Of a stretch of 64,000 nt of DNA, positions 26,941 through 48,435 are shown in pieces. Source of the DNA: a virus (taxonomy: Duplodnaviria > Caudoviricetes); IMG/VR virus record IMGVR_UViG_3300011113_000415. The stretch is one strand, 5' to 3'. The notes beneath the pieces are model-generated. The model saw only the letters and a program-made list of their open reading frames with translations. It made no database searches and was not told the origin of the DNA. Both the position numbers and the translations under genes were made by a program. Within the stretch, counting starts at the first letter, position 1. The number at the start of each line of letters is the position of its first letter.

Positions 26941-26952
26941 CAAGGACAAAAA

Positions 26953-27837: not shown

Positions 27838-27843
27838 TCAGCA

Positions 27844-27872
27844 TTGACAACACATTAAAATTCCTGTATACT
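27844..27872 (+). promoter_or_regulatory. sigma70-type promoter
   Basis: TTGACA-N17-TATACT then AAGGAG. Confidence 0.85.
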
Positions 27873-27889
27873 CTACACAAAGGAGTAAC

Positions 27890-28126
27890 ATGGAACATCC
27901 GTTCATAAACGATCTAGATGGCTTGACTCTGGAGCAACTGGGGTCCAAGATCACCGAACTCAACAAGAAACTGGGCATTGCCATGAGATCTGGCAATCCC
28001 TATCTGTGCGATCAAATTCGCATGGCACTCAACAGTTATGTCTCAAAACAACAACAAAAGATGCAGGAACTGTATAGACCCAAAGATGGTGAAGACACTT
28101 TTGAAGGCAAGATCGACATATCATGA
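27890..28126 (+). CDS. Hypothetical helical protein
   Basis: AAGGAG SD, 78 aa. Confidence 0.75.
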   Translation: MEHPFINDLDGLTLEQLGSKITELNKKLGIAMRSGNPYLCDQIRMALNSYVSKQQQKMQELYRPKDGEDTFEGKIDIS

Positions 28127-29227: not shown

Positions 29228-29249
29228 ATAAAATTCAAGGAGAACCGCA

Positions 29250-29651
29250 ATGACAAAAAAAACTTATCGAACTGCACAAGGTCGAGTGGTAGACCTAGGT
29301 GCCATGATGGTGCAAAACGAAACTGTTCGTGCTGTAGGCAATATGAGCGTGAATGCTCGTGGTGATATCATTGACTCACAAGACCGTGTGTTGGCCACAC
29401 GTGGCGAACAGGTAAACAGAAATCTCAATCGCCAAACCAATGCCAACCCAGGGCCTGTGCCATCCAGCAATCGTGTACCAGAAGCACCCAAATTAAGCGA
29501 AGCCGAACTGTTGGAATTGGCCCGGAAAGAACGTCAGGACAAACGTGAAGCCGTGGCACGTGGAGAAAAAGTAGAAATGAAAGGTGACCGGCCCACACAA
29601 GGACTGGCTGCCGCAATGGCCCGAGCAGAAAAACTCAAGGATCAAGAATGA
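29250..29651 (+). CDS. Hypothetical late protein
   Basis: TAAATA 29225-29230 and AAGGAG SD. Confidence 0.75.
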   Translation: MTKKTYRTAQGRVVDLGAMMVQNETVRAVGNMSVNARGDIIDSQDRVLATRGEQVNRNLNRQTNANPGPVPSSNRVPEAPKLSEAELLELARKERQDKREAVARGEKVEMKGDRPTQGLAAAMARAEKLKDQE

Positions 29652-30049
29652 CAAAACTGGCATATCAAGCACATCAACTGCGTCGAAAACAACTGAGACC
29701 TTTAAATGATTCAGTGATAGTGGACGAAATGGTTTTTGATGAGCGAATCACCACAGGCGGCATTGTATTGCTCAACGACAACGGCAAAAGCACAGGCATA
29801 AGACCAAGATGGGGTAAAGTATATGCTGTGGGTCCTGAGCAACAAGATGTTGCTGTAGGCGACTGGGTATGTGTAGCACATGGTCGCTGGACACGTGGTA
29901 TTGACATTGAAGATGAATCCGGTAAACACACATTGCGACGTGTGGATCCCAAAGATATCCTAATACAAACAGATGAGCAGCCTAATGACGAAACGTTCTC
30001 AACAGCCATTCATGTAGAAGCCAAACCCGATTGGATGCAACACAATTGA
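29648..30049 (+). CDS. groES: GroES-like co-chaperonin
   Basis: LRPLNDSVIV...TTGGIVL...GKVYAVGP...VAVGDWV. Confidence 0.8.
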   Translation: MTKLAYQAHQLRRKQLRPLNDSVIVDEMVFDERITTGGIVLLNDNGKSTGIRPRWGKVYAVGPEQQDVAVGDWVCVAHGRWTRGIDIEDESGKHTLRRVDPKDILIQTDEQPNDETFSTAIHVEAKPDWMQHN

Positions 30050-30050
30050 T

Positions 30051-30287
30051 ATGAAGATAGACTGGAATGTGAATTCAGTTATCTATGAGTGCCAAAAAAT
30101 GTACCAGGGTGCTACGGATCCTTATGTGACAGGTTGGAACAATTGGCCTTGCAAACAAGATCTATATCGTGTAAAATTTGCTGTGGACGAGATGTTGCGG
30201 AATACCGGAACATTTAGTGGCGAAGCAGAATGGCTGGAAGAACAGGAAAAACAACGCATGTGGAAGGTGTTGAATGGAACCAATTAG
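30051..30287 (+). CDS. Hypothetical protein
   Basis: Operon context. Confidence 0.65.
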   Translation: MKIDWNVNSVIYECQKMYQGATDPYVTGWNNWPCKQDLYRVKFAVDEMLRNTGTFSGEAEWLEEQEKQRMWKVLNGTN

Positions 30288-30525
30288 GCCTCCTAGAACA
30301 GTGAAGTTTTATCAATTGTTGCGAATGGCAACCAAGACCGGCTTGAATATTTCGAGTGTTGGGCAAATCAGCAATGGTTACAACTATGTGGGCACAGGTA
30401 TCTATAGTACTTTGCCAGAAGCCGAGCACCAGCGTACCTTGGAAACTCTCAAAGACACCGACGGTGGCACCAACTCCTATCACATTTTTGAACTAGAATT
30501 TCCTAACCCTGTATACCGAGAATGA
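30274..30525 (+). CDS. Hypothetical protein
   Basis: Operon context. Confidence 0.6.
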   Translation: MEPIRPPRTVKFYQLLRMATKTGLNISSVGQISNGYNYVGTGIYSTLPEAEHQRTLETLKDTDGGTNSYHIFELEFPNPVYRE

Positions 30526-30998
30526 TATTCAATCACATCAAACGACTTAAACAAGAAGGCAAACGAATTGGCATCACATTCTCCACCTTTGATCTTGGCC
30601 CCCATGCAGGGCACATTGCTATGCTGTCGGAGGCCAAGAATCACTGTGACTACCTCATCTGTGGGTTGCAAACAGATCCAACTATCGATAGACCTAAAAC
30701 TAAAAATCGCCCTATACAATCTATTGTGGAGCGACAGATACAGTTGGCCGCTTGCCGTTACGTTGATGAAGTTGTTGTATATCAAACCGAACAAGATCTT
30801 GTTGACCTCTTGCTAATTCTACCAGTTGATGTTAGAATCTTGGGTGTAGAGTACGAAGGTAAATCATTCTCAGGTGACGAGGCTTGCTGGAAACGCAATA
30901 TTGAAATTGTATTCAACAGCAGAGACCATTCATTTTCCAGTTCAAGTCTACGCAAACGTGTGGCACACGCAGAAACAGAAAAGTTATTAAAATCATGA
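30522..30998 (+). CDS. Cytidylyltransferase (TagD-like, HIGH superfamily)
   Basis: FSTFDLGPHAGHI...LICGLQTDP...RDHSFSSSSLR. Confidence 0.88.
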   Translation: MIFNHIKRLKQEGKRIGITFSTFDLGPHAGHIAMLSEAKNHCDYLICGLQTDPTIDRPKTKNRPIQSIVERQIQLAACRYVDEVVVYQTEQDLVDLLLILPVDVRILGVEYEGKSFSGDEACWKRNIEIVFNSRDHSFSSSSLRKRVAHAETEKLLKS

Positions 30999-31482
30999 GC
31001 AAAGGATCAAGACCTAGACCATTTTCAGTGGAGCAACAAGAAGAGCAAACGGGCATTATCGAAAACTTGCTAAAACCATGCAAGAACATTGGGATAAAAA
31101 TCCATGGCAGAATAATTTAGAATGTCCTATACTTCCGTTTAAAAACACACAACTGACTTATCAAGAGACATACGAGTTTGAGTTCCTTGAGGAACTTGAA
31201 TTTGATAACGGAATTGAATGGGTAGTATCAAATGTAAAACGAGGACCATCTGTATGGTATATCGATCCCACTAACAACGCCGAAAGATTGTATATTAGCG
31301 ATTTCATTATCGATAACACAGTTTATGAAATTAAGTCAAATTGGACCTGGAACAAACATGGTAAAGATTTGGTGCTAGAAGAAAAGAACAAAGCAAAGTT
31401 GACAGCCTGTATCAATCAAGGCTATAATGTAGTATTAGTTTTAAATCAAAAAAGGATATCATATGAAGGAATTATGGGTTGA
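30995..31482 (+). mobile_element. Degenerate homing-endonuclease-like insertion; PD-(D/E)xK-type C-terminal domain at 31078-31482
   Basis: YISDFIIDNTVYEIKSNWTW...KNKAKL.A...GY; AT-rich; frame open only from 31018; preceded by short MSKGSRPRPFSV ORF in another frame. Confidence 0.5.
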
Positions 31483-32383
31483 GAAATGGAGGCCCAAAAC
31501 TGTGGACGGCTATGTGTTTGTGGACGATGCACAGCGTGAGCAAGTGGAGCAATGGATACGAGACGGTACCATCCCGCATTTGATGTTGTCAGGCCCAGCA
31601 GGCACAGGCAAAACCACCTTGGCCAAGATGCTGATCCATGAACTGGGCGTGGATGAATATGACGTCTTGTATGCCAATGGATCCAAAGAAGCACGTAAGA
31701 TCAACTGGGTTGATCAGTTGATATCGTTCTGTCAGACCATGCCTTTTGGTAACTTCAAGGTTGTACTGATTGACGAAGCAGATTATATGAACCCACAAAG
31801 TGTACAACCAGCCCTGCGCAACTTGATGGAAGACTACAGTCACTCGGTGAGATTCATTCTCACTTGTAACTATCCCAGCAAGATCATTCCTCCATTGCAT
31901 TCACGTTGCCAAACATTTCAAATACACAAGACAGATCACACAGAGTTTACTGCCAGAGCCGCAACTGTGTTGGTTTCAGAAGGGGTGGAGTTTGATTTGG
32001 ATGTACTGGACACCTACGTCAAGGCCACGTATCCAGATCTACGCAAGTGTTTGAATCTGCTTCAGCCCAACAGTCAAACTGGGCAACTGCTTGCACCCAG
32101 GACCTCGGACCGCAGTATAGGGGACTGGCGTTTAGAATGTGTGGACTTGTTCAAACAAGGTCGAGTTCGTGAGGCCCGAACTCTTTTGTGTCAAAGTTCT
32201 ACGCCCGAAGAATCAGAAGACATATTCATCTGGATGTACAACAACTTGGAACTATGGGGCAAAACTGAAGAACAACAAGATCAAGCCATTGTGATCATTC
32301 GCGATGGTCTGGCCAAAATTCCATTGGTAGCGGATCAAGAAATCAATTTAAGTGCCACACTCTGCGAACTCAGTCGATTGTAG
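31463..32383 (+). CDS. Sliding-clamp loader AAA+ subunit (T4 gp44/RFC-like)
   Basis: WVEKWRP, GPAGTGKT, DEAD, SRC. Confidence 0.93.
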   Translation: MKELWVEKWRPKTVDGYVFVDDAQREQVEQWIRDGTIPHLMLSGPAGTGKTTLAKMLIHELGVDEYDVLYANGSKEARKINWVDQLISFCQTMPFGNFKVVLIDEADYMNPQSVQPALRNLMEDYSHSVRFILTCNYPSKIIPPLHSRCQTFQIHKTDHTEFTARAATVLVSEGVEFDLDVLDTYVKATYPDLRKCLNLLQPNSQTGQLLAPRTSDRSIGDWRLECVDLFKQGRVREARTLLCQSSTPEESEDIFIWMYNNLELWGKTEEQQDQAIVIIRDGLAKIPLVADQEINLSATLCELSRL

Positions 32384-33009
32384 ATTACTTTAAAGATAGC
32401 ATGATGAGACTTAGGTCCAAAGGTATTTGATTGTGTATCTATACTGTGGTCAACATGAAAACGATTATAAACTAAAAATTGTTTTGATAAGGCTTCTGGT
32501 AAATCTAAATTTTCATTATCCCAATATAAAAAAATCTTATTTTTTGACGCAAGGATTCTATTTACTTGATCCACATAATCAATCAATCTAGAAATACAAA
32601 AATCTTTTTCATTAAAAATCGTAACAGTTTGATCATCAATTCGACGTCTATTGGCATTGTTAACCTGTATGATAAAAATATCATTACAATTGCTGTTTGC
32701 CATAATTTTTAAATTGTTTAAATTATCATGGTTTTCATAACGATAACAACCAAAACTCATGTTACAGAGATGTAAATTTAATTGAGCAGCCAATTTATAG
32801 GCATAGGTCAAGGATTGGTCAAGTCCTATTCCAAAACTTATACTGCCCCCAACTACCACTAGTTTTTTAGTTGTAGAATCAAATTCATCACAACGGAATC
32901 CATGTTTATTAAAACTGTAATTGATAATATTACGATTGTCTATACCAAAATTGCTCACAGTTTTTCCTGCAAGAGATTTCATGTGGGCTGGTAGTGTCCA
33001 ATTTTCCAT
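32335..33009 (-). CDS. AT-rich hypothetical protein, possibly SGNH-like
   Basis: FNKHGFRCDEF...GGSISFGIGL. Confidence 0.5.
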   Translation of the reverse strand: MENWTLPAHMKSLAGKTVSNFGIDNRNIINYSFNKHGFRCDEFDSTTKKLVVVGGSISFGIGLDQSLTYAYKLAAQLNLHLCNMSFGCYRYENHDNLNNLKIMANSNCNDIFIIQVNNANRRRIDDQTVTIFNEKDFCISRLIDYVDQVNRILASKNKIFLYWDNENLDLPEALSKQFLVYNRFHVDHSIDTQSNTFGPKSHHAIFKVIYNRLSSQSVALKLIS

Positions 33010-33707
33010 AAAAGCAGTTCTTTTCTAATTAAAAATTTTGTCTTAGTATCTACCTCGACTCTTTTGTCAAGGAACTGTTTAAGAAATCCTTGGTTGCGAT
33101 TTTTCCAGTCAAAGTAAAGTGGGCACCACTGATCCATACGCAGTGGATTTATTTTTAAGCCTAAAAAATCAAACATTGATTCAATCATCTTGTCAAGATT
33201 TTGAAATAGATCTTGGTAATACAACAGTTGATAGCCTTGGAAATTTTCTGGTATTTTATAGTAATCTACGAAGATTTCAGCATGTTCTAACAGTATCTGG
33301 CGTGTGGCATCTGTTCCAAATACATGATAAAGATTTTCAATCTTTTTTACAAATTCATTTTTTTTGTTTATTGTACAGAATCTTGCCAAAAGTTCTTGGT
33401 TGGAATTTCCTGCCTGGAAAATAATTTTTTTACAAGTGTATCTGGTCAAATAATCAATGTCATATTGATGACTGGGAGTGATATAAATTACAGACTGTTC
33501 ATTTGCATTTTCAAGTTGACGTAAATCTTTTGAATATCTGATATGATCTTTCTCAAATCCATGAGCGGTAGGTCCGATTAATGGATTTATATCAACTGGC
33601 ACCACAAGATTGTTTAAAGTTTTGTATGAGGCGGCTCCAGTCAAATAAGTAATAGACCAATTTAAAAAAGTAAAACCACAGCCACCAGGACCAATAGTCA
33701 AGATCAT
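32979..33707 (-). CDS. AT-rich P-loop/sulfotransferase-like protein
   Basis: N-terminal IGPGGCGFTFLNW; C-terminal YQDLF...MFDFLGL. Confidence 0.45.
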   Translation of the reverse strand: MILTIGPGGCGFTFLNWSITYLTGAASYKTLNNLVVPVDINPLIGPTAHGFEKDHIRYSKDLRQLENANEQSVIYITPSHQYDIDYLTRYTCKKIIFQAGNSNQELLARFCTINKKNEFVKKIENLYHVFGTDATRQILLEHAEIFVDYYKIPENFQGYQLLYYQDLFQNLDKMIESMFDFLGLKINPLRMDQWCPLYFDWKNRNQGFLKQFLDKRVEVDTKTKFLIRKELLLWKIGHYQPT

Positions 33708-33718
33708 AAGGAAAATAA

Positions 33719-34027
33719 ATGCGTTATTTGTTACTTACCTACTATAAAAAACCCTCAGGACAAATCGACGAGATAACCGCGGTTGCTCGAAATCTCAAAA
33801 ACCGAGATCTTCAAACCTGTAATGTAATACTTGACTTCAAAACCCTTTCTGTAGTAAAATGTAGCATGGATGGCACGGTGGTTCCAAGAAATTGGGATCG
33901 TATTGTGAGTTACTATAACCAATATTACCAAAACATTATTGAACGATTACTACAAGAGAACGGATACGAAATTGTCAAACCCGAAGAAACCCCAGAAATA
34001 CAACCCCAAGCAGTTGATCCTAGTTGA
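33719..34027 (+). CDS. Hypothetical protein
   Basis: AAGGA SD, 102 aa. Confidence 0.75.
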   Translation: MRYLLLTYYKKPSGQIDEITAVARNLKNRDLQTCNVILDFKTLSVVKCSMDGTVVPRNWDRIVSYYNQYYQNIIERLLQENGYEIVKPEETPEIQPQAVDPS

Positions 34028-34595
34028 CGCAGATGGTGTGATTTTGGATTGGGAATATGCGTTCTCGGTTTGGATGGAAGAACATGGCTTTACAAGAACT
34101 GAAGGCAGTCAGTTCATATATGATATAGGCCTACGCTACGGAATTGAACAAGAGCAAGGTCGTAAATTGATTAAGATTTTCAATGAGTCGGCAGCGATTG
34201 GATTCTTGCCACCCTTGCGTGATGCCATGTACTATGTAAAACGACTACATGAAGAACATGGCTATATGTTTCATTGTATTACTAGTCTAAGTCTTGATGC
34301 TAATGCAGGCAAATTGAGAGAAATGAATCTACGTAAGTTATTTGGAAAAACTGCATTTGAAAAAATTGTGTGCTTAGATACCGGTGCAGACAAGAATGAT
34401 GCATTGTGCGAGTATCAAAACTCAGGTTGCTATTGGATTGAAGACAAACCAGAAAATGCTGAAGTTGGACTAGATCTAGGTTTACGTAGCATCCTAATGG
34501 AGCATGGGCATAATATGAATCATGTCAATGAACAAATTCCGGTTGTCAAAAATTGGCGTGAAATCTACGAAATCGTCACCTCTCAATCTGCATAA
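33939..34595 (+). CDS. HAD-superfamily phosphatase/5'-nucleotidase-like
   Basis: DADGV (DxD), ITS, IEDK; true start likely slightly downstream. Confidence 0.85.
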   Translation: MNDYYKRTDTKLSNPKKPQKYNPKQLILVDADGVILDWEYAFSVWMEEHGFTRTEGSQFIYDIGLRYGIEQEQGRKLIKIFNESAAIGFLPPLRDAMYYVKRLHEEHGYMFHCITSLSLDANAGKLREMNLRKLFGKTAFEKIVCLDTGADKNDALCEYQNSGCYWIEDKPENAEVGLDLGLRSILMEHGHNMNHVNEQIPVVKNWREIYEIVTSQSA

Positions 34596-35338
34596 AGTTT
34601 CAGCACTGAGCCAATTATGGGATGACGCTGGATATCACGACCAGTCATCCTGCACACTATCATGCCCGGCACAGGCTGGACTTCCAATCTAGAGCACAGA
34701 TCCAACAGGCCATTTGCGTCCTGCCGTCGATCTGCTTGTTCCACATCTCCAGTGACCACAATTCTACTGCCGGTGCCTATGCGGCTCAACAGCATTTTCA
34801 TTTGTGCAGGAGTGGCGTTTTGCATTTCATCTGCAATGATCCAGGCATGCTTGAACGTGCGTCCACGCATGTAGGCCAAAGGTGAAATTTCAACAGTGCC
34901 TTCTTCGATCATGGCCATGATCTCTGGGGGTCGGTAATATTCGCGTAGCACATCCAGCAGGGGTCTTGTCCAGGGTTCCATTTTGGCCACTAGATTGCCG
35001 GGCAAAAAGCCATGTTGTTCATCCTCCACGCCAATGGCTGGACGAGTTAGAACTATACGCTTGGCTTCGCCGCTTCTTAATGCACGGACCGCTGCCAGCA
35101 TGGCCAAATAGGTTTTACCAGTTCCTGCTGGCCCTGCTGTGATAATGATGTGTTGGTCTAGGTCGAGTAGAGCCAGTACAAGATGTTCTTGATTGCGTGT
35201 TTTGGGCAATAATTCTATGGGTCGTTGTCGCGTTCGGGGTTGCGGATTGAACTGAATTAAGTTTTCTTGGACTGTTTGCATACGTTTTTGCGCCTTGGCG
35301 CCTCGGTTTCTACTCAAGTGCGATTCTCCTTTAAACAC
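34583..35338 (-). CDS. phoH: PhoH-family ATPase
   Basis: GPAGTGKT, GFLPG, RGRTF, DEMQN, GD..Q.D; likely TTG start at 35317 after AAGGAG; minus-strand TAAATA 35359-35364. Confidence 0.95.
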   Translation of the reverse strand: MFKGESHLSRNRGAKAQKRMQTVQENLIQFNPQPRTRQRPIELLPKTRNQEHLVLALLDLDQHIIITAGPAGTGKTYLAMLAAVRALRSGEAKRIVLTRPAIGVEDEQHGFLPGNLVAKMEPWTRPLLDVLREYYRPPEIMAMIEEGTVEISPLAYMRGRTFKHAWIIADEMQNATPAQMKMLLSRIGTGSRIVVTGDVEQADRRQDANGLLDLCSRLEVQPVPGMIVCRMTGRDIQRHPIIGSVLKLYAD

Positions 35339-35480
35339 AGCCTGTTGGACTGTGTGAATATTTAGGTTAGTTTAAAGCAAGTTTTATAGGCACGAATGTC
35401 CAAGATCTCAGGCATAAGTATTCCACTGTGCTCCAAAAAAACAAACACACCCCTAAAATATCTTTGCCATAAATATCAAT

Positions 35481-36089
35481 ATGACACTCCACGACGAAGC
35501 AATTTTTAAAGATCATACGGATTATTGGATGGTAGCAGACACCATTCGTGACATTTACTTGAGTGAGGGCAGTTTGCTTACACTGTTGGATTTTGAGCGT
35601 GTGCTGGACGAAATGGATCTGTATGCGTTCAAAAACTGGGACCGTGGCGAACTGGTACAAGGTCCTGACATTGGCAAATACAAAGTGGGCTGTATATTCA
35701 TGTGGCCCGAATCACTCATGCCCGATCCCCGTGGCGCCCGACGTTTGCTGCCATTTGACTGCGAAGTGAGATTCAAAAAAACCACTATCAAAATACCCAT
35801 CAAAGTTGAAAAACCGTCAGACTATCAAGCAGGCACCCACACAGCACGTCTAGTGGACAAGCACGTATGGCTAGTGGAAATAGTCATGCCCAAGAGTTTA
35901 ATTTCAGACATCCGCACAGGAAGTATAGAACTGGAAGATCAAGACATTGACCTAGAAGATTTGGACTCAGCCTATCAAGAAGATCTTGACAATGAACAGT
36001 ATCAAAGTGACGCCAGTGCTGATCAAGCACAGCAGTCATTACAACAACCAGGAGCACCAATTGCAGCCGCACCGCCAGTCGCTTCTTGA
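35481..36089 (+). CDS. Hypothetical late protein, acidic C-terminus
   Basis: TAAATA 35470-35475, 5 nt before ATG. Confidence 0.8.
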   Translation: MTLHDEAIFKDHTDYWMVADTIRDIYLSEGSLLTLLDFERVLDEMDLYAFKNWDRGELVQGPDIGKYKVGCIFMWPESLMPDPRGARRLLPFDCEVRFKKTTIKIPIKVEKPSDYQAGTHTARLVDKHVWLVEIVMPKSLISDIRTGSIELEDQDIDLEDLDSAYQEDLDNEQYQSDASADQAQQSLQQPGAPIAAAPPVAS

Positions 36090-36609
36090 AGGTCTTGGCT
36101 ACAAAGACCTAGAGGGCATGCTAAAGCCCACTATTCACGTGGACGAATTTGATAGTAAAATGGGTGACAATGATGACATCATTGTCGTAAGTTTCTTTGC
36201 CCGTGATAAGGCCGCAGCCAAGGATCTAATGAATTGGTTTGAAAAAGGCTATGACTTTGTGCTGGATGCTGATCAAAGCCCAGGCGAAATCAAACCCAAC
36301 CGATATCTAGTGTATGTGGAAATGCGACGTCGCAGAGCCGCTCCTGAACAGATTGCGGAATTACTAGAAGACCTGGGCACACTCACAGAGTTTGATCCTG
36401 AGGAATGGACCATGGTTTATCGGGAAAAGAGTCATGACTGGAGTCCTGAACTGTTTGCTCGACTGGTGCCACTGAGCCCACGAGAGTATCGTGAGCGCAC
36501 AGAACGAGACTTGAATGAATGGCGTGTGGCAGCCGGCATGCCGGTCAAGACCACATACGAAGCAGATGATGCTATTCGCTCAATACAATCAGCGGCAGGT
36601 ATCCTATGA
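35986..36609 (+). CDS. Hypothetical late protein
   Basis: LLEGLGYKDL...DEFDSKMG; start uncertain. Confidence 0.7.
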   Translation: MTMNSIKVTPVLIKHSSHYNNQEHQLQPHRQSLLEGLGYKDLEGMLKPTIHVDEFDSKMGDNDDIIVVSFFARDKAAAKDLMNWFEKGYDFVLDADQSPGEIKPNRYLVYVEMRRRRAAPEQIAELLEDLGTLTEFDPEEWTMVYREKSHDWSPELFARLVPLSPREYRERTERDLNEWRVAAGMPVKTTYEADDAIRSIQSAAGIL

Positions 36610-38621
36610 AAATACGTGACGTACTATTAGAATTCGCGCCTGGTGGTGGCGGTGACTCAGGTGATTACTTACGAGCCTTGGCTAGTGCCTGGTACAACGG
36701 CACATTTGATTCTGGTAGCCTGCAAAAAGGCATCAAGAGTCAACAAGATGTAGAACGCTTGTTGAATCGCGGCATTGTGTGTCCCGATGGTAAAACACGC
36801 AAACTACACATTGATTACAACTCAGACTTTGATGGTGTGGAAATCTACAGTGATGACTACTATGAACACGGTGACCTAGATGGCAATGACGGTCGCACAG
36901 GACAGCCCTGGGGACCATATGACCACATGGAGTTCAAAGACGAAGAACTAGACGAAGGTGTGGCGGAGGATACAGGTGATCAAAAGTTTGACTCAATGAT
37001 GAGCAGAATGACTGCCGAGCCAAAATATCCTGATCAGGACATGCCACCAACTAGTATTGCTGAATTGATACAATGGGCAGATAGGAACAATAAACCGTAC
37101 CATGAGTATTTTGCTCAATGGGCTAGAAGAAATGGATTTAAAAATGTAAATGATGCACTGGTATGGTTTGGTGACAATGTTGATCCATCTAATCCATGGG
37201 GACCAAAAGACTTTTTAGATCCTTTTGGCCGGCCCGCGGCAGAAGAACTAGAAGATGCTGCCAAGCACGATCCCAAGGCAGCAGAACTAATGAAGGTTTT
37301 TAGATGCTATGAAGAAATTGTATTTGATTGGCCCGATGAGTATCGTCAGATGAATATGCCAGCCTCAAGAAAAGGAACAGATGAAGGTGTGACGGAAGGC
37401 TTAGATCCTTACCGACTGGAACGCCTAGATCCACAGACACGCAGAGTGCTGACTCGCATGACCAAACACGCCGAACCCGGATCATGGCTCAGTGCCGCGG
37501 AGTCATATGCTATGCAACTGGGCCTAGAACAAAAAAATGAGAATCCACGAGCCTGGGAGCAAGAAGTTCAGTATTTTGTCGACCTTTACCGTCAATACAG
37601 TGGGCAAGGCGTGGCGGAAGGCTCCTTGAACGAATTTGCACCCGATAGCAACGACAGTGGTGAAGAAGATGCCTTACACCAGTACGCCAGAATGTGGTGG
37701 GCCGGAGATGAAGCCACACAAATGCAAATTGAACGTGCTCTAGCAAAAATGGGCTGGGAAATTGGTGAGGACGAAGGCAGTTACGACAACGGCGGTGTGT
37801 TTGTGGTACGTGCTGGCGACGTCAACGGCAATAGTTACATTTCATGGCCCGCAGAAGAACTAACAGAAGGCTCGGATCCCTGGGGTTCCCAAGGACGCTA
37901 CGTAGGCGACACAGGACCTGCACAAATATCTACCGCAGTCAAGAGAACCTCATTGAAACCAGGTGATCAAGTCATATACAAACCCACTGAACAACGTGCT
38001 CGTATAGAATCCCTGAGCCGAGACAGCACTCAAGCACGAATTCACATAGCAACTCCCATGGGTGGCCGGATTTTTAACTGCCAAACATCTGACCTAAAAC
38101 AACTGGCCAACGAGACTGAAATTGACCGACTGAAAAATCTTGCTGGTATCAAAGAAAGTCATGACCTTTGCAATGTTTGCGGACAAACACCTTGCAACTG
38201 CACACATTTGTCAGAAGAGTTTGATTTGATAGAATCAATTGTGGAGAAGATTGCTGTCCACAACGGAGTGGACGCAGACATGATCTGGGAAGATTTAGAA
38301 AGTCTCAGCGATGATGAATTGTATGTGTTTGCTGTGACCAGCGAACCCATAATGGAAGACTGGCAAAAGGTCAACAAACAGGATCGTACCTCGGGCATGA
38401 GTCGCAAGGCTGTAAAAGCCTATCGCAGAGAGCATCCAGGATCAAAACTAAAAACTGCTGTGACCACCAAGCCTTCAAAACTCAAGCGTGGTTCGAAGGC
38501 CAGCAAGCGACGCAAAAGTTATTGCAGTCGCAGTCGTGGACAAATGAAAATGCACAACATATCTTGTGCCAAAACTCCTGACAAGGCCATTTGCAAGGCC
38601 CGACGTCGTTGGAACTGTTGA
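36606..38621 (+). CDS. Modular head-type polyprotein (cassettes separated by GV[AT]E linkers; basic Cys-containing C-terminal module)
   Basis: N-term MKIRDVLLE; EGVAED, EGVTEG, QGVAEG, ELTEG linkers. Confidence 0.75.
   Translation: MKIRDVLLEFAPGGGGDSGDYLRALASAWYNGTFDSGSLQKGIKSQQDVERLLNRGIVCPDGKTRKLHIDYNSDFDGVEIYSDDYYEHGDLDGNDGRTGQPWGPYDHMEFKDEELDEGVAEDTGDQKFDSMMSRMTAEPKYPDQDMPPTSIAELIQWADRNNKPYHEYFAQWARRNGFKNVNDALVWFGDNVDPSNPWGPKDFLDPFGRPAAEELEDAAKHDPKAAELMKVFRCYEEIVFDWPDEYRQMNMPASRKGTDEGVTEGLDPYRLERLDPQTRRVLTRMTKHAEPGSWLSAAESYAMQLGLEQKNENPRAWEQEVQYFVDLYRQYSGQGVAEGSLNEFAPDSNDSGEEDALHQYARMWWAGDEATQMQIERALAKMGWEIGEDEGSYDNGGVFVVRAGDVNGNSYISWPAEELTEGSDPWGSQGRYVGDTGPAQISTAVKRTSLKPGDQVIYKPTEQRARIESLSRDSTQARIHIATPMGGRIFNCQTSDLKQLANETEIDRLKNLAGIKESHDLCNVCGQTPCNCTHLSEEFDLIESIVEKIAVHNGVDADMIWEDLESLSDDELYVFAVTSEPIMEDWQKVNKQDRTSGMSRKAVKAYRREHPGSKLKTAVTTKPSKLKRGSKASKRRKSYCSRSRGQMKMHNISCAKTPDKAICKARRRWNC
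36954..37622 (+). repeat. Three dispersed 18-bp in-frame linker repeats (36954, 37383, 37605)
   Basis: GAAGGTGTGGCGGAGGAT / GAAGGTGTGACGGAAGGC / CAAGGCGTGGCGGAAGGC. Confidence 0.8.
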
Positions 38622-38623
38622 CC

Positions 38624-39052
38624 ATGAGACAGTTGATCAATCTAGTAGAAGCAGTGGAAAAGGGCTGTCCCGTTGCCACACACGATATCACACTGAATCT
38701 CAAGAATCGACAAAAGGCCATTGACGACTATCACTACGGCCCAGCCAATCCTTTAGAACCCGGAGACTATTGGAAGCAGGCCGCCCGTCGTTGGCACGTA
38801 AGTGAAAAAATTATAAAAACAATGAAATGTGGAAATTGCGCGGCTTTTGATGCCAGTGACAGCATGCGTGAGTGTATTTCGGCGGGCATTAAAGGTGATG
38901 ACAAGAACATTGATTCAGCGGCTACTATAAATCTCAGTGACCTTGGCTATTGTAATTTTTTACACTTTAAATGTGCAGGTTCAAGATCTTGTTCGGCTTT
39001 TGTAGTTGGTGGACCTATCACTGAAAAAGATAAAGGTAAAAAGGCCAACTAA
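38624..39052 (+). CDS. Cys-rich protein with capsid-targeting-like N-terminus
   Basis: MRQLINLVEA; CGNC, YC, KCAGSRSC. Confidence 0.75.
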   Translation: MRQLINLVEAVEKGCPVATHDITLNLKNRQKAIDDYHYGPANPLEPGDYWKQAARRWHVSEKIIKTMKCGNCAAFDASDSMRECISAGIKGDDKNIDSAATINLSDLGYCNFLHFKCAGSRSCSAFVVGGPITEKDKGKKAN

Positions 39053-39808
39053 ATGATTGCTAGAGACATTGTGGAATCTAGTGGCTACAGTTTGGCAGGC
39101 AGTTACACGCCTGATCTAGTGTTCAGCAAACTGTGGCTGGCCCGTGAATTAAAACACATATTGCAACAACAGGGTATTGATTCAGTACCAGTTGCTTATA
39201 TTTTGGGTTCATGGTACAGCAATCTCAGCACAATTCTACGCAAGACAGGTGTGCCCTTAGACAAAATTGTGGATGTAGAGCGCCGGAAGGAATGGTTAAA
39301 GACAGGCCAGCAATTACAACAAGACATGAACATCACAGGTGTAGAACAAATGCAGGCCGATGCTAACGAAATAGATTATAGACAACTTCAACAGCCCGGC
39401 ATAGTAATCAATACTTCAACCAATGATATTCCTGATCACGGATGGTTTGATAATATACCGTCTGGCACCATTGTGGCACTACAAGGACGTGATCATGTGC
39501 TACCCGGTGCTGAACACACATATAATTCGCCCAACGATCTATTACAAATGTATCCCTTGGAAACTGTGCTGTATTCAGGCACCTGGAACCTAGAAGATCC
39601 AGAAACTGAGTATCAGCGTAGCATGGCAATAGGTATCAAGGGTGCAAATCAATTGCGAGAACTACAGTTCCTGGGTTCAACCTGCACCAAGGACTGCTCG
39701 GGGCATCGTGCTGGCTACAACTGGTCCAAGCGCAAAGGCCTAGTTCACGCCGCATCCTGGAGTCCCAGTTTCAACAAAGGTGCCGCCTTGGCAGTGGCCG
39801 GCAAGTAA
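39053..39808 (+). CDS. Rossmann/methyltransferase-like protein plus small C-terminal Cys module
   Basis: MIARDIVE; YILGSWYS...VDVE...DAN...INTS; tail FLGSTCTKDCSGHRAGY. Confidence 0.5.
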   Translation: MIARDIVESSGYSLAGSYTPDLVFSKLWLARELKHILQQQGIDSVPVAYILGSWYSNLSTILRKTGVPLDKIVDVERRKEWLKTGQQLQQDMNITGVEQMQADANEIDYRQLQQPGIVINTSTNDIPDHGWFDNIPSGTIVALQGRDHVLPGAEHTYNSPNDLLQMYPLETVLYSGTWNLEDPETEYQRSMAIGIKGANQLRELQFLGSTCTKDCSGHRAGYNWSKRKGLVHAASWSPSFNKGAALAVAGK

Positions 39809-40534
39809 TCACAGTCGGGTGTAAACAAAATACAATCTTTCATTGGCTTCACGTTTAAATGTATTCAATTGTAATTTATATCGTTCAGCAAATTCATTTG
39901 CTACTTCAAATGTCCAAGGAAAAATATCCACGTACGGTCCAGTTCTGTGCGGAATACCTGGATTGGCTCGTAGATAAAAGCGCCCACCTACCCGAAGCAA
40001 ATTTACACAGTGAGCAAAACGTTGTTCTATTTCATCTCGTGAATTAAAGTTGATTGAGCCCAAGGCCATGATTACATCGTACTGGTGGTTTACTCTATAT
40101 TCCAAAATATCAACTTCATAATCTGCGCAGTTATTGTACGGGTCAATTCCTACCAAATTCTGTATGCGTCCTTTGAAAGGATGATAGCCACAGCCCACGT
40201 CCAACACCCGTTCAGGATTTAATCGATTGATTTCATCCGCCAATTCCCAACCAGTGTGTTCATAGTCGCCAGTGCGCGGCTTCCATATTTCTGAAAAGAA
40301 ACGCAAGATATAGCGTTCACTCAGATCATCGGTGATTTCTCGTAATGTACCCACATAATCACAGGGCAAACTGAGTTCTGCGTCTATAGCGTCTCGGAAC
40401 TTTCTATAACGTGCCGGAGTCCAAGGTAAGTCTTGTACCTGGGTATCAGCGCCGATAGAAATATTTGCATACTTAGGTAAATTAAACGCAGATTGCAAAT
40501 TTTTTTGTAAAAGGTTAAAAATTTTTAAATTCAT
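39809..40534 (-). CDS. Class I SAM-dependent methyltransferase
   Basis: VLDVGCG, GIDP, YDVIMALGSIN; minus-strand TAAATA 40571-40576. Confidence 0.85.
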   Translation of the reverse strand: MNLKIFNLLQKNLQSAFNLPKYANISIGADTQVQDLPWTPARYRKFRDAIDAELSLPCDYVGTLREITDDLSERYILRFFSEIWKPRTGDYEHTGWELADEINRLNPERVLDVGCGYHPFKGRIQNLVGIDPYNNCADYEVDILEYRVNHQYDVIMALGSINFNSRDEIEQRFAHCVNLLRVGGRFYLRANPGIPHRTGPYVDIFPWTFEVANEFAERYKLQLNTFKREANERLYFVYTRL

Positions 40535-40586
40535 AGAAATTTTTGGTAAATAAAGTTGATTTTCAAATACTATTTAAGGAGTTTCT

Positions 40587-41564
40587 ATGTCAATCAAAAA
40601 ATTTATAATCGCCGCACTACTAGTGCCTGTACTGGCTTTTGCCTGGGAGCCTGTCAAGCCAGTCACAGTTATTATTGGCAACACACCCGGCGCTGGAAAT
40701 GAAATGGCCTTTAGAAAACTGGCCGAAATTGTACAAAAGCGAAATCCCAACTTTGTTTATGTTGTGCAAAACATTCCTGGTGCAGATTCAGTTATTGCCA
40801 ACAATAAATTTTTGGAAGCGCCCAATGACGGATATACTATCAACTTGCCCAGCCACATGAGCAGTTATGTCACAAATGATATCTGGGAAAAGAATTTAAA
40901 GAAGTACAATTATGACAGTTTTGTAGACGTGCTGACCATGGGCAAAAGTCCACTGGTCTTGGTTGCATCAGTAAAGAGTGGAATTGAAACCCCACAAGAC
41001 TTTGTGAAGTATATACAATCTGGAAGAAACATCAATATAGCCATTGGTGGTGGCGCACATCGCACAGCATTTGAATATTTGATGGAAAAAGGCCGGGGCA
41101 ATCGAGACGCTGTTCGTTCGATCAAATTCAATGGTCCTGTGCCTGCGCTACAAAGTGTTGGACAGTGGGATGGACGAACTGGAACTGAATTTGGTATCAT
41201 GCCTATCGCTGTGGCCAAAGCATTGATTGATGCAGGCAAAGTAAAACCCATTGGATTTACAGGCACTAGGAAAATGGCACAATTCCCAAATGTACCGCTA
41301 TTAAACACAGTTGCTCCGGGCATCAATGTGTATGCGGCTTGGTCAATCGAATTGCCGCCAGGAACTAACAAGGACATTGTAGAATGGTATCAACGTGAAT
41401 TTTCAACTGCAATTCGTTCAGCCGAATATAGAGAATACACAGATGCCAATGTTATATTCTACTCTGAAGATGAACTCACACCAGCAGGTCTTAAAAAGCA
41501 CATGGATGAATTACGTGCGTCATTTATTCCTGTGCTGAGTCGAATTGATTTAAGTAAAGAATGA
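40587..41564 (+). CDS. Tripartite tricarboxylate transporter substrate-binding protein (TctC/Bug family)
   Basis: Signal peptide; PVTVIIG..PG......R.LA...VVQNIPGA...APNDGYT. Confidence 0.85.
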   Translation: MSIKKFIIAALLVPVLAFAWEPVKPVTVIIGNTPGAGNEMAFRKLAEIVQKRNPNFVYVVQNIPGADSVIANNKFLEAPNDGYTINLPSHMSSYVTNDIWEKNLKKYNYDSFVDVLTMGKSPLVLVASVKSGIETPQDFVKYIQSGRNINIAIGGGAHRTAFEYLMEKGRGNRDAVRSIKFNGPVPALQSVGQWDGRTGTEFGIMPIAVAKALIDAGKVKPIGFTGTRKMAQFPNVPLLNTVAPGINVYAAWSIELPPGTNKDIVEWYQREFSTAIRSAEYREYTDANVIFYSEDELTPAGLKKHMDELRASFIPVLSRIDLSKE

Positions 41565-42181
41565 AATATATCTTTGTGGCCGGCGCACCAGGCTCTAAAT
41601 GGTCGAGTGTAGTTAAAAATATCTATTATTCACCAGATATTGACAGATCTGATTATTCAGATGCACGTACCTATTATCACGATGCGTCAGGAAAATACGA
41701 CTTGATGCATCTGGGTGCATATTTTGACCCTGGAATGGAATTTGGCAATTTCTTTGATCAATTGGATCAGTACACAAAAGAACAATGTGAAACAGAATTT
41801 GATAGACCATTTTTGGGCACAGGTATACGCATTTTAAAAAGTCACGTGTTTGCCAATCATATTGATTATATCAAACAGACCTGGCCCGATTGTCCTATAG
41901 TGCTAGTGCATCGTGACGATGACGCTTGTTTGGGCTGGTGGGTCAAGTGCGGACATTTTGACATCACATATCCATTGTATCACGATTATTATCAAAACCT
42001 ACGAACCATGGCCGGTATAATTCGAGATCAAAATGAAGGTATACAACAGGCCGCATGGGATTATCCACGCAGACAGCCTCAGACCAATCGCGAATTGGCC
42101 AGGATTTTGGCCATTGCAGAACCGCCTGAGGGCTACGAACAACACTATATACAACACAACATTCGAGTGAGAGTAATATGA
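41561..42181 (+). CDS. P-loop/sulfotransferase-like protein
   Basis: YIFVAGAPGSKWS; LKSH; IVLVHRD. Confidence 0.5.
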   Translation: MKYIFVAGAPGSKWSSVVKNIYYSPDIDRSDYSDARTYYHDASGKYDLMHLGAYFDPGMEFGNFFDQLDQYTKEQCETEFDRPFLGTGIRILKSHVFANHIDYIKQTWPDCPIVLVHRDDDACLGWWVKCGHFDITYPLYHDYYQNLRTMAGIIRDQNEGIQQAAWDYPRRQPQTNRELARILAIAEPPEGYEQHYIQHNIRVRVI

Positions 42182-42828
42182 ATTCCAGTTGGGACATCAG
42201 CCGAGCATTAAGTACCTATCATTTTGATAGCCAAATCATTGATCAACCCCAAGATGTTGTACACTATTTGGGTCGCATCGAACCCACGTGGCTGGCAGAT
42301 CTTGAGGATATTGTGGCCAATTCCAGGCCTGCAACCTGGGCCACACGTGGTTACAAAGGCGAAGGCATTGAAGCACCGTCAGAAGAACTAGAACGAGAAC
42401 TGTATGATTTGACACGACACGGCATGAGTACAGATTTGCCAATCACACACCTAAACTGGCGCATACCCGAAAGTCTGCAACGCATCAGCGACGCATTTGC
42501 CTTGGATTCTTGCATGGATCGCATACATGTTCAGCGTCCCGGAGAAGTGTGGAATAGACACATTGACAAATTGGCCAAGTGGGCGCCAGATCATCCTGAC
42601 ACTGTCATGCGAATCATGATACAACTCACAGACTGGCAGCCAGGGCAGTTTTGGGAATACGGCAATTATCACTACAATCACTGGCGTGCCGGAGATGTCA
42701 CAACATTTGACTGGGCCAACATTCCGCACTGCACAGCCAATGCTGGACATCATGCCAGAGTCACACTTCAATTGACCGGAATTAAAACAGCCGCTACCAT
42801 GGATTATCTAGCACAATTGCCGCTATGA
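42178..42828 (+). CDS. 2OG-Fe(II) oxygenase-like (double-stranded beta-helix) protein
   Basis: HxD (RHID), distal H (PHCTAN), RVTLQLT. Confidence 0.7.
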   Translation: MNSSWDISRALSTYHFDSQIIDQPQDVVHYLGRIEPTWLADLEDIVANSRPATWATRGYKGEGIEAPSEELERELYDLTRHGMSTDLPITHLNWRIPESLQRISDAFALDSCMDRIHVQRPGEVWNRHIDKLAKWAPDHPDTVMRIMIQLTDWQPGQFWEYGNYHYNHWRAGDVTTFDWANIPHCTANAGHHARVTLQLTGIKTAATMDYLAQLPL

Positions 42829-43448
42829 AGACTTTGTTGATCATGACAGGGCCGCAAGGTTCGGGCAATCACATGTGGTCAAAAATCTTTGCCTTGCATC
42901 CTGAAGTTCACGGCTGGCGGGCCCTGCTGGATCAATATTGGATAGGTCACGACCAAGAACCTTTTGCCAAGTACTGGGCCAATCCTGATTTATTAGAGAG
43001 TTTTGAATGGCAACACCGCTACTATGTGACGTCTATCAGTGTGCCTTACATGAACAATGGCACTGCAACCAAGCCCAACATTGTGCGTTTTGCCGCCTGC
43101 GCCATGGGAGCAGGATTGCGAGTCAAGATTGCTATCTTGGGACGTGATCGCAATATTGTCGATTATCAACAAATACGGGTGCGCGGAGCCAGCACACATG
43201 AACAGGCCTTGGCTGAATATCAAAAGTTGACATCTTGGCAACCCACATATTTGAGTTATGAATTGTTGTACATGTATGGCAGTGACTATTTGCGTCGATT
43301 GAGTGATCAATTAGAATTTCCAATTGCCTACAATGATCCCAGACTAAAAGAAATCATGGCCGAGGACACAAACAGTAAATATTTTACGGCTATTGATTAT
43401 CACCCTACAGATGATTTAGCACGCTACGCTTCAAGGAAACACCGATGA
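42825..43448 (+). CDS. P-loop/sulfotransferase-like protein
   Basis: MTGPQGSGNHMWSKIF; GRDRN; YLSYELL. Confidence 0.55.
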   Translation: MKTLLIMTGPQGSGNHMWSKIFALHPEVHGWRALLDQYWIGHDQEPFAKYWANPDLLESFEWQHRYYVTSISVPYMNNGTATKPNIVRFAACAMGAGLRVKIAILGRDRNIVDYQQIRVRGASTHEQALAEYQKLTSWQPTYLSYELLYMYGSDYLRRLSDQLEFPIAYNDPRLKEIMAEDTNSKYFTAIDYHPTDDLARYASRKHR

Positions 43449-44287
43449 AAACCACCCGACGCATATTGATAATGGGCCTGCCAGGAGCAGGCAAAACTTA
43501 CTTTGCCGAACGACTAAAAAAATATTTAGAAGATCATATCAAACCCATAAATGAACACAGTCTGCGACCCATTGCAGATGCACAAGTCTCTGTGACCTGG
43601 TTCAATGCTGATGACATACGCAAAAAGTACAATGACTGGGATTTTTCACACGAAGGTCGCATACGTCAAAGTATCCGCATGCGAGACCTGGCGGATGAGT
43701 CTGGTTCTGATTATGCCATTGTGGACTTTGTGGCACCGCTAGTGGAAATGCGCAACAATTTCAAAGCCGACTGGACCATCTGGATTGACACTATAGAAAA
43801 AGGTCGCTTTGAAGACACAAATAAGATATTTGTGCCACCCGAAGTTTATGATTTCCGCATTACAGAACAGGCCGCAGAAAAATGGTCAGAATTTGTAGGC
43901 GAGCATATTGTGGAAAATAGACGAAGACCCGTTTTTGACTGGCAAAAGGAAACTGTGCAGATGCTGGGCCGCTGGCAACCTTGGCATCAAGGACATCGTG
44001 CCTTGTTTGAACGTGCTATTGCCAAGACCGGACAGGTTGTGATACAAATACGTGACTGTCAGGGCTGGCAAGGAACCAATCCCTTTGCCATAGAACAAGT
44101 TAAATATTTCATACAGCGGGACCTAGATCCTGTATATCAAGGACAGTATGAAATTCAAGTTGTTCCTAATATTGTTAATATCACTTACGGTCGCGATGTC
44201 GGTTATCGTATCGAACAAGAGTCCTTTGATGAACAGACTACCAATATCTCAGCGACCAAGATAAGAAAGGCCATGGGCCTTGAATAA
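43445..44287 (+). CDS. Adenylylsulfate-kinase-like domain fused to HIGH-family nucleotidyltransferase
   Basis: GLPGAGKT, ADDIR, DFSHEGR, VDFVAP, FVPP; C-terminal GRWQPWHQGH...ISATKIR. Confidence 0.8.
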   Translation: MKTTRRILIMGLPGAGKTYFAERLKKYLEDHIKPINEHSLRPIADAQVSVTWFNADDIRKKYNDWDFSHEGRIRQSIRMRDLADESGSDYAIVDFVAPLVEMRNNFKADWTIWIDTIEKGRFEDTNKIFVPPEVYDFRITEQAAEKWSEFVGEHIVENRRRPVFDWQKETVQMLGRWQPWHQGHRALFERAIAKTGQVVIQIRDCQGWQGTNPFAIEQVKYFIQRDLDPVYQGQYEIQVVPNIVNITYGRDVGYRIEQESFDEQTTNISATKIRKAMGLE

Positions 44288-44504
44288 GTACCACGTGAGA
44301 TTCAATACCAAGCACAATGGTTCTGAACTAGTATGGCGTGTGTTTGAAAATGGTATTGAACACCTAGCCAAAGATGTAAGATTGGTGGGCGAAACCTTTA
44401 CAGAATGCACACACGAACATGGCGAAACCAAATGGAATATCGCCTGTGCGGGCCGTTTAATATGGGTAGATAACGTAGCGGTAATTGTGACCGGCAAGGA
44501 CTAG
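44280..44504 (+). CDS. Hypothetical protein
   Basis: 74 aa, operon end. Confidence 0.6.
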   Translation: MNKYHVRFNTKHNGSELVWRVFENGIEHLAKDVRLVGETFTECTHEHGETKWNIACAGRLIWVDNVAVIVTGKD

Positions 44505-44541
44505 CCAACCCACGAGACCCTGACTGCAACTAAATAGTTGA

Positions 44542-44985
44542 ATGTGGATCTTACACTTTCTTCCTGATTCAGTTATTGTATGGTTTTGCAATATCCTGCT
44601 CCTAGCGGGCATTGTGGCCACTATTGCAGGTTTTTTTGCACATCGCATTCCTGGACTTTGGCAGTATCAACTAGCATTCAAAATAGGTGGCATTTTGCTG
44701 TTGGTCTTGGGTGTTTATTTCCGTGGCGGATTGGCCGTGGAACAGGAATGGCGCGAGCGTGTGGCCGAAGTTGAAAAACGATTGCAAGTGGCCGAAGCAC
44801 AGGCTGCCGAAGCCAATCAACAAATAGAAAACAAAACACAACAACGAGTCACACAAATTCGTCAGCGCATGACCTACATCAAACAGTATGTGGATCGAGA
44901 AGTTGTACGATACAACGATCAATGCCAGATTCCTCAGGCATTTGTTCGTGCTCACAATCAAGCCGCGGAAGCACCTGCCAAATGA
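44542..44985 (+). CDS. Putative inner-membrane spanin (Rz-like)
   Basis: TM helices then coiled coil, C-terminal Cys; TAAATA 44531-44536; followed by a lipoprotein. Confidence 0.7.
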   Translation: MWILHFLPDSVIVWFCNILLLAGIVATIAGFFAHRIPGLWQYQLAFKIGGILLLVLGVYFRGGLAVEQEWRERVAEVEKRLQVAEAQAAEANQQIENKTQQRVTQIRQRMTYIKQYVDREVVRYNDQCQIPQAFVRAHNQAAEAPAK

Positions 44986-45245
44986 AATATGTTTTGCTTG
45001 CTCTAGTGTTGTCGGGCTGTAGCACAGTGGTTCCTGTCACAGCCAAATGGCCTGATCCTCCAGGCAAAGGCGCAATGACAGCATGTCCTCATTTGCAAAA
45101 ATTAACAGATGGCGCAAAATTAAGTGATGTTGCAAACACAGTGTCGGTAAACTATAACACCTATTATGAGTGTGCAGTCAAAGCAGATGCCTGGCAGGAG
45201 TGGTATCAAGTTCAAAAGCACATATTTGAAGGTGCTGGTCGATGA
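44982..45245 (+). CDS. Putative outer-membrane lipoprotein spanin (Rz1-like)
   Basis: MKYVLLALVLSGC lipobox; Pro-rich; ATGA overlap. Confidence 0.75.
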   Translation: MKYVLLALVLSGCSTVVPVTAKWPDPPGKGAMTACPHLQKLTDGAKLSDVANTVSVNYNTYYECAVKADAWQEWYQVQKHIFEGAGR

Positions 45246-46228: not shown

Positions 46229-46241
46229 AAAGGAAAAACAA

Positions 46242-47852: not shown

Positions 47853-47873
47853 ATACATCACAAGGAAGAAATC

Positions 47874-48434: not shown

Positions 48435-48435
48435 T

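Follow-up and report, generated by a model that had tools for sequence, protein, structure and literature searches.

Does one long open reading frame (ORF) in a phage genome necessarily stand for one protein? The question is raised by a 64,000-nt stretch of DNA from an uncultured virus (Caudoviricetes; IMG/VR record IMGVR_UViG_3300011113_000415), referred to below as the window. Positions 36606-38621 of its plus strand form an open reading frame for a 671-residue product, which we call P0001 and which has the N-terminus MKIRDVLLE. A P0001-identical ORF is present in independent assemblies, and metagenome contigs from lakes, rivers and viral fractions, sampled in several studies, contain the gene without a single letter changed. 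P0001 consists of a nine-residue leader followed by eight modules, A to H (Table 1). The same modules are found in other orders and combinations in wild relatives, so P0001 is probably one gene that delivers several small proteins packed into the capsid.

Modules of P0001 and their arrangement in relatives

A search of about 5.8 billion proteins returned at least 2399 significant matches of similar length and at least 5981 shorter ones. Nearly all matches cover 13-60% of P0001 at 70-92% identity, and what recurs among these relatives are discrete modules, in different orders, numbers and combinations. For example, A may be followed directly by D, and D by B; module C is swapped for other modules in P0002 and others; and in relative P0172 module B is inserted between G and H, so that G is separable from H. 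Modules A, G and H together make up a common 289-residue form, and a related complete genome has G and H, behind another small module, in a gene of their own of 183 residues. The relatives that were fetched contain 151 instances of A, 99 of D, 40 of B and one only of F. Thus, the relatives are not colinear with P0001. An initial annotation of this DNA, made from the sequence by itself, had described the ORF as a string of cassettes, a multi-gene array within a single frame, and had named colinear orthologues as the first observation that would speak against this. The comparison of orthologues strongly supports the description; relatives gain, lose and reorder modules exactly at the linkers.

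The linkers named in the initial annotation are all found in P0001 (a slash marks the junction): LDE117/GVAE121/D, GVTE264/G, QGVAE338/GSLNE343/F, ELTE421/G, IKE517/S, LSE537/E and IME584/D. Cutting at the linkers would give pieces of 108, 143, 74, 78, 96, 20, 47 and 87 residues, or 2-17 kDa. Six of these are acidic, with isoelectric points (pI) of 4.1-5.4, and two are basic, namely the KOW-like module E (pI 9.3) and module H (pI 11.3). The initial annotation had also pointed to a basic Cys module at the C-terminus, in agreement with the high pI and the four Cys of H, and to two blocks that start alike. The latter resemblance holds for A and D, which align over their first ~40 residues in a profile-profile comparison (hhalign; probability 91.7%, E 7.7e-7), whereas five other module pairs reach at most 1.7%. 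It is significant only by profile comparison, pairwise BLAST of A against D giving no significant match.

AlphaFold2 (fragment alignment) models confident domains at residues 17-118, 145-250, 350-422, 447-500 and 533-589. Six of the Glu residues at putative junctions (E9, E121, E264, E338, E343 and E517) fall in segments where the predicted local distance difference test (pLDDT) score is below 50; E117 and E421 lie at domain edges, and E537 and E584 lie at the ends of the helical module G. As modelled, P0001 is a beads-on-a-string chain whose linkers are predicted to be accessible. The barrel at 447-500 superimposes on the KOW domain of NusG (2xhc_A; VIA-align Z 8.7, root-mean-square deviation 1.6 over 53 residues), and its Foldseek matches are to Tudor and KOW domains, all with E >0.001. 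Foldseek against PDB and BFVD, wide VIA-align and Atlas shape searches with the whole model found no fold other than this generic KOW/Tudor/SH3-like barrel, and ESM Atlas feature searches with modules A and B gave no usable match.

Pfam and PHROGs searches with the whole of P0001 identified DUF6321 alone (PF19846; residues 592-669, E 1.2e-7), which at 32.7 bits against a cut-off of 28.5 is above the gathering score. Modelled alone (AlphaFold2, pLDDT 82.5), DUF6321 had no fold match (best Z 4.3, Foldseek E >5). In tblastn against cultured phages the match to P0001 is restricted to residues 575-671, and megablast of window positions 30000-45000 against cultured phages gave no match. In cultured T4-like cyanophages P-TIM68 and S-CREM2, DUF6321 stands at the C-terminus of hypothetical proteins of 427-490 residues, which are encoded between the small and large terminase genes (Table 1).

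Junction motifs, leaders and the GVAE coding word

What marks the places where modules are exchanged? We mapped internal homology breakpoints in 120 relatives and found that they fall on the Glu of an [LIVM]-x-E motif 4.3 times more often than random positions do (8.6% versus 2.0%). Within three residues of this Glu the figures are 35% versus 13%, and the mode lies exactly at offset 0. In P0001 itself, breakpoints cluster at residues 117-125, 264, 328-334, 419-423, 500, 535 and 577-584. The one at 500 marks the end of the folded barrel, after which a variable tail runs to IKE517.

The sequence just ahead of a module is constrained even where the modules have nothing in common. Among 260 distinct contexts of unrelated modules, 257 show a motif of the form [LVIM]-x-E just ahead of the module. 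Glu occupies position -1 in 183 of 185 distinct contexts for the FAP modules A and D taken together, in all 33 for B and in 41 of 42 for G; before all three of these unrelated families, position -3 is L, V, I or M and position -2 is free. More exactly, A and D are preceded by [LVI]xE, B by [VLM]xE and G by L-x-E, and B is found equally behind GVAE, QLDE, DLTE or GMAE. An [FVIL]-x-E motif likewise stands directly before DWQK, at the start of DUF6321, in most of the diverged viral contigs aligned; S-CREM2 has MNE/DWQK at this place and P-TIM68 has TNE/DWQK, which is off the rule. The DUF6321 protein of P-TIM68 begins MDNSNSINE/.

The same form closes the N-terminal leaders. Of 238 relatives, 190 begin with a leader M[KR][IV]x[DE][IV][IL]xE of 8-9 residues, and most others start MRL[RK]E. 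FAP modules start either directly after such a leader (MRLRE/FAP, MKINDILVE/FAP; 51 contexts) or after an internal xLNE/FAP, and leader and linker are therefore interchangeable. Cargo bearing a capsid-targeting sequence (CTS) has a leader of about 10 residues that ends in L/I-x-E; P0001 has this form in MKIRDVLLE, and the leaders of its relatives end in [LIVMF]xE. The T4 prohead protease gp21 cuts after L/I-x-E (PMC9026906), a rule that the initial annotation had stated and that the linkers fit. From it the annotation had proposed a precursor cut in the prohead into several small injected proteins, a proposal that the comparison supports in part.

One linker type, GVAE, is conserved at the nucleotide level as well, a feature that the initial annotation had missed. 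It is encoded by GGTGTGGCGGAAGG, with codons that are otherwise rare: GTG is used in 19 of 20 and GCG in 19 of 20 GVAE linkers, compared with 25% of Val and 6% of Ala codons in the same ORFs, and the flanking peptides are unrelated. The exact 17-mer CAAGGTGTGGCGGAAGG occurs in at least 120 IMG/VR stretches, codes in frame for QGVAEG in 159 of its 162 matches and joins at least 156 distinct flank pairs in frame. Other GVAE linkers in the ORFs that carry this 17-mer, which were not selected by the pattern, have GTG in 83% and GCG in 84% of cases against backgrounds of 20% and 7%. In the window, the protein pattern [QEKDSN]G[VM][AT]E[GADSN] occurs four times, versus 0.13 in shuffles. The codons at LNE/FA junctions are at background frequencies, and these junctions are conserved as protein only. 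Selection therefore acts on [LIV]xE as a protein motif in itself, and the GVAE word is further constrained at the nucleotide level.

Since so many different flanks are joined in frame, the GVAE linker is probably also a recombination joint. QGVAEG, the commonest linker, with its near-invariant DNA word, could provide an in-frame microhomology at which modules would be swapped, deleted or inserted between genes and phages. Pausing at rare codons is a weaker alternative: with GGT as the most frequent Gly codon, it accounts for only part of the word. Contigs of four metagenome runs were examined for deletions or swaps at linkers; the joints listed were short-sided (20-26 nt), did not lie at linkers and were left out of the argument.

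Proposed packaging and cleavage of P0001

How, then, would such a chain be used? On balance, we think that P0001 is probably a cargo polyprotein expressed late by a freshwater jumbo phage related to T4, targeted by its leader and cut by a protease, with the pieces retained in the head. The leader would act like a T4 CTS and bring the chain into the prohead core. A gp21-family prohead protease would then cut after Glu at exposed [L/I/V/M]-x-E sites between the modules and set free roughly seven or eight small proteins, six acidic and two basic. These would stay in the head and probably be ejected with the DNA, as are IPI-III and Alt of T4. A gene for a suitable protease is present in G001, a complete 344-kb IMG/VR genome with direct terminal repeats that is colinear with window positions 22000-36336 at 64-76% nucleotide identity. 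G001 encodes, side by side, a Peptidase_S77 protease of the T4 gp21 type (E 5.9e-24), a coiled-coil scaffold and a gp23-type capsid protein (E 9.8e-98). Its protease is highly conserved in this phage group, with 88-96% identity in the best 120 of at least 8000 matches. The closest capsid proteins from cultured phages, 65% identical, belong to the Pseudomonas jumbo phage PA5oct and its relatives.

The most economical description is that P0001 is a concatenated version of the T4 internal-protein system, in which one leader loads the chain and the protease frees several proteins. In T4, the first 10 residues of IPIII are enough to direct it to the capsid, processing depends on residues 8 and 10 and is blocked by Asp at position 10, and the CTS can carry foreign proteins into heads (PMC9026906). 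T4 Ip1-3, which have only the leader in common, are injected and inhibit different GmrSD restriction enzymes (PMC12373910). Like P0001, T4 IPI, IPII, IPIII and Alt have a short leader with an MK start and a hydrophobic-x-Glu end. The T4 internal proteins also resemble the modules of P0001 in being small (about 8, 10 and 20 kDa) and otherwise unrelated in sequence, in belonging to the hypervariable accessory genes of T4-type phages and in going with an S77-family protease, here that of G001. The two systems differ in that each T4 internal protein is a separate gene with one leader, whereas an ORF of the P0001 family can join as many as eight modules or more, with the leader motif serving again at internal positions; conservation of one linker type as DNA is likewise a feature of the P0001 family. 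Pfam and PHROGs searches detected no homology of P0001 to T4 internal proteins.

Cleavage in phages of the phiKZ type follows the motif S/A/G-x-E. At module starts of the P0001 family, P3 is instead L, V, I or M, and the small P3 (S, A or G) is not matched. The phiKZ-like phages (SPN3US gp245 protease; PMC5694885, PMC7411985, PMC10052503) resemble our case as giant phages with many internal head proteins, a gp21-related protease that cuts after Glu, and products that are ejected into the host. Their processed proteins mostly lose a propeptide and are not known to be strings of shuffled cassettes; the phage lineage also differs, the PA5oct capsid protein being the closest cultured one here.

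Several points weigh against a packaged and cleaved P0001. Targeting, cleavage, packaging and retention, ejection and recombination at the linker are steps that we infer from the sequences and models described above. The junction statistics are descriptive: conserved linkers attract the ends of BLAST alignments and the compared sequences are relatives of one another, and because of this the figures on breakpoints and module contexts are not independent samples. The motif [LIVM]xE is short and common, so its count alone is not significant; there are 15 in P0001, several of them inside confident helices of module G. After the breakpoint at residue 500, the first site comes only at 517. The L/I-x-E rule is that of T4 gp21 and may not be the rule of the protease in this clade, and the gp21-type protease is known from the relative G001 and not from the window's own genome, whose contig is not among the protease matches listed. 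Finally, the conserved virion proteins at the flanking positions in PA5oct are without such leaders.

Might the chain instead work whole? On this account, P0001 would be an uncleaved multidomain protein of the polyvalent type, acting in the virion or in the cell, and the motifs would be flexible linkers inherited with the modules. There is something to be said for it: cleavage of P0001 is a deduced step, the beads-on-a-string model suits a cleaved and an uncleaved chain alike, and many phage proteins of variable multidomain architecture are packaged intact, the N4 virion RNA polymerase being one example (PMC5512222). Polyvalent proteins (Iyer, Burroughs, Anand, de Souza, Aravind 2017; PMC5512222) further resemble P0001 in joining many disparate domains in variable architectures, as P0001 and its relatives do across phages within one polypeptide, and in their proposed entry into the host with the DNA and release by proteolysis. 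They differ in having hallmark enzymatic domains and often an embedded peptidase, whereas P0001 is made of tiny modules with DUF6321 as the only Pfam match; Pfam and PHROGs searches of P0001 found neither an embedded peptidase nor any of the hallmark domains (zincin-like MPTase, ART, kinase, GNAT, nucleases). Release of P0001, unlike that of polyvalent proteins, would fall to a trans-acting prohead protease at a repeated linker. Passive linkers, moreover, leave four observations unexplained, namely the invariant Glu at -1 and hydrophobic residue at -3 before unrelated modules, the equivalence of internal linkers and N-terminal leaders, the tandem double sites LDE/GVAE/ and GVAE/GSLNE/, and the conservation of LNE as protein with free codons. 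We therefore consider it unlikely, though the likeliest of the alternatives, that P0001 functions uncleaved.

If P0001 is cut, its pieces might also build or size the prohead as core or scaffold filler and mostly exit before DNA packaging, like fragments of T4 gp22, gp67 and gp68. An acidic character, seen in six of the eight modules, is scaffold-like; T4 core proteins are cut into several fragments that leave the head; and the tail EIDRLKNLAGIKE (P0001 residues 504-517, window 38115-38156) resembles the VIDLKRLAGL C-terminus of the gp22-like scaffold of G001 (L084:3161). Such a role nevertheless appears quite improbable, since an accessory gene that is absent at the syntenic position in G001 and PA5oct, and whose modules are hypervariable, is a better fit to arms-race cargo such as T4 Ip1-3 (PMC12373910) than to an assembly factor, and the modules are modelled as confidently folded globular domains. 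The same tail also resembles a recurrent module motif, RVKKLAGLGPLKT, present in most of 48 regular-expression matches among relatives. This tail motif may be a shared core- or capsid-binding peptide.

We give still less credence to the idea that the linker is kept only for a role in nucleic acid, as a recombination joint or as an RNA or translation signal, with the match to a protease site as a by-product. The use of GTG and GCG in GVAE linkers, far above background, is what such a role would predict, and one metagenome contig (run X5) matches the window only at 37604-37646 (QGVAEG-SLNEFAP) and has unrelated sequence on both sides, a single weak hint that different cassettes in one sample have the linker in common. 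However, LNE/F, LTE/G, LDE/G, IME/D and LxE/EF junctions keep [LIVM]xE with ordinary, varied codons; the 17-mer keeps so consistently to the QGVAEG frame that it is a coding element; and rare-codon pausing, with GGT the commonest Gly codon, misses part of the word. Lastly, it is very unlikely that P0001 is not a head protein at all and acts in the cytoplasm late in infection, with a leader for translation initiation or some other localisation: its presence in virions is deduced and the adjoining conserved virion proteins of PA5oct lack a leader, but the leader of P0001 has the form of a T4 CTS, the gene belongs to a late operon and adjoins that of a virion-protein homologue, and the DUF6321 proteins of the T4-like cyanophages are encoded in a structural region, between the terminase genes.

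Returning to the cargo polyprotein, a wider proposal can be made, though here we are tentative and somewhat doubtful. Freshwater jumbo phages may assemble their virion cargo by a process resembling exon shuffling, in which the 14-17 nt coding word GGTGTGGCGGAAGG (GVAEG) would be both a head-protease site and a universal in-frame recombination joint, so that any module bounded by it could move between genes and phages and remain fit for packing, cutting and injection. Under this proposal, each polyprotein would be an operon written within one ORF. A related precedent is the shuffling of PeSLs in T4-type genomes (Arbiol et al. 2010, PMC2839356), where, as with the linker word, accessory cassettes are bordered by short conserved DNA motifs that have been proposed as mediators of exchange in hyperplastic regions. 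PeSLs lie between genes, are promoter-terminator cassettes of about 100 bp and shuffle entire genes, whereas the joint in P0001 is a 14-17 nt coding word that shuffles modules in frame; by analogy, the GVAE word would be their coding, intragenic counterpart.

The CTS, processing by gp21, polyvalent proteins, processed ejection proteins of phiKZ-like phages and linker-mediated modular shuffling are all already known. In the literature searched we found no polyproteins of shuffled mini-modules with protease-type junctions, one of them fixed as a DNA word, and no phage paper that contains the linker motif. If the cargo polyprotein is real, this very large family would hold a hidden pool of small injected proteins, missed by ordinary gene calling because they are fused into polyproteins. 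Because the leader-tagged internal proteins of T4 inhibit restriction systems of the host (PMC12373910), the modules may include new factors for anti-defence or takeover. As a universal junction, the linker would then preserve the frame, offer a processing site and favour recombination, and so represent a rule of design found in nature. Module boundaries, and hence mature products, would be predictable from sequence alone in uncultured giant phages.

Operon and genomic setting

P0001 is encoded in an operon that begins just downstream of a TAAATA late-promoter-like core (Table 1). On the plus strand of the window this hexamer occurs 19 times against 33 expected from base composition, and 13 of the 19 copies lie 10-52 nt upstream of gene starts, a pattern consistent with a T4-late-type promoter core that is avoided elsewhere. 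The positional counterpart of the first gene in PA5oct, gp189, is a virion protein detected by mass spectrometry (PA5oct virion study). The gene directly upstream of P0001 matches phrog_13138, 'virion structural protein' (E 1.2e-15), and in tblastn it matches structural proteins of Atu_ph07, PA5oct, MIJ3 and 121Q. The syntenic locus of PA5oct has the order PhoH, gp189, gp188, DnaJ, ClpA. Because the conserved flanks are syntenic, P0001 and the two leader-bearing genes that follow it are placed in a variable island between conserved genes.

Table 1. Features of P0001, of its operon and of two cultured DUF6321 loci. Positions refer to the window, except for the last two rows; residue numbers are those of P0001.
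Feature	Position	Residues	Description
TAAATA core	35470..35475 (+)		late-promoter-like; 11 nt 5' of first operon gene (ORF 35481)
First operon gene	35481..36089 (+)		202 aa; PA5oct gp189 position, by synteny (PhoH - gp189 - gp188)
Upstream gene	36061..36609 (+)		homologue of virion structural proteins of cultured jumbo phages; stop overlaps P0001 start (ATGA)
Leader	36606..36632 (+)	1-9	MKIRDVLLE, capsid-targeting-like, ends L-L-E; pLDDT <50
Module A	36633..36956 (+)	10-117	FAP...WYNG family; 12.1 kDa, pI 4.3; pLDDT 80-95
Linker GVAE	36957..36968 (+)	118-121	DNA GGTGTGGCGGAG
Module B	36969..37397 (+)	122-264	helical; 16.6 kDa; last residues GVTE264; pLDDT >90 for 150-250
Module C	37398..37619 (+)	265-338	helical, rare; last residues QGVAE338; pLDDT 53-68
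GSLNE	37620..37634 (+)	339-343	second half of double linker; copy of N-terminal LLE/FAP junction
Module D	37635..37868 (+)	344-421	distant paralogue of A; last residues LTE421; pLDDT ~90
Module E	37869..38156 (+)	422-517	KOW/Tudor/SH3-like beta-barrel (447-500) and tail EIDRLKNLAGIKE517
Mini-module F	38157..38216 (+)	518-537	CxxC...CxC; last residues LSE537
Module G	38217..38357 (+)	538-584	acidic helical EFDLIES module; last residues IME584
Module H	38358..38621 (+)	585-671 and stop	DUF6321; basic, pI 11.3
Downstream gene	38624..39052 (+)		leader MRQLINLVE
Downstream gene, last of operon	39053..39808 (+)		leader MIARDIVE
DUF6321 protein, P-TIM68	L089 1481-2764		
DUF6321 protein, S-CREM2	L090 1304-2776		

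The island spans window positions 36606-50772, between the conserved virion-protein genes and DnaJ/ClpB, and contains P0001, the two leader genes, a TctC-like binding protein and a weak sulfotransferase-like match. At the same position G001 has a different gene set and in PA5oct DnaJ comes directly next, P0001 being absent from this position in both. The gene for modules G and H in G001 is found after a giant ORF and not at the island. The window has a giant ORF of its own at 57603-63998, which starts 11 nt after a TAAATA core and runs off the end of the window at more than 2132 residues; residues 1883-2044 match an Alt-like ADP-ribosyltransferase (phrog_802), a further match is amidoligase-like, and a QGVTEG linker occurs once, at 62556. 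The product is probably another packaged multi-module protein. Its counterpart in G001 has 1399 residues, with the G and H gene directly next to it.

The capsid protein of G001 (L091 1342-2538) carries LLE/G twice and ILE/N once in its N-terminal part, ahead of a conserved GVQPM core; these would be consistent with a T4-like maturation site. A TAAATA core also lies 10 nt ahead of an ORF at 21752-22294 of the window, whose N-terminus, MREHINLVEA, resembles the leaders of the cargo genes.

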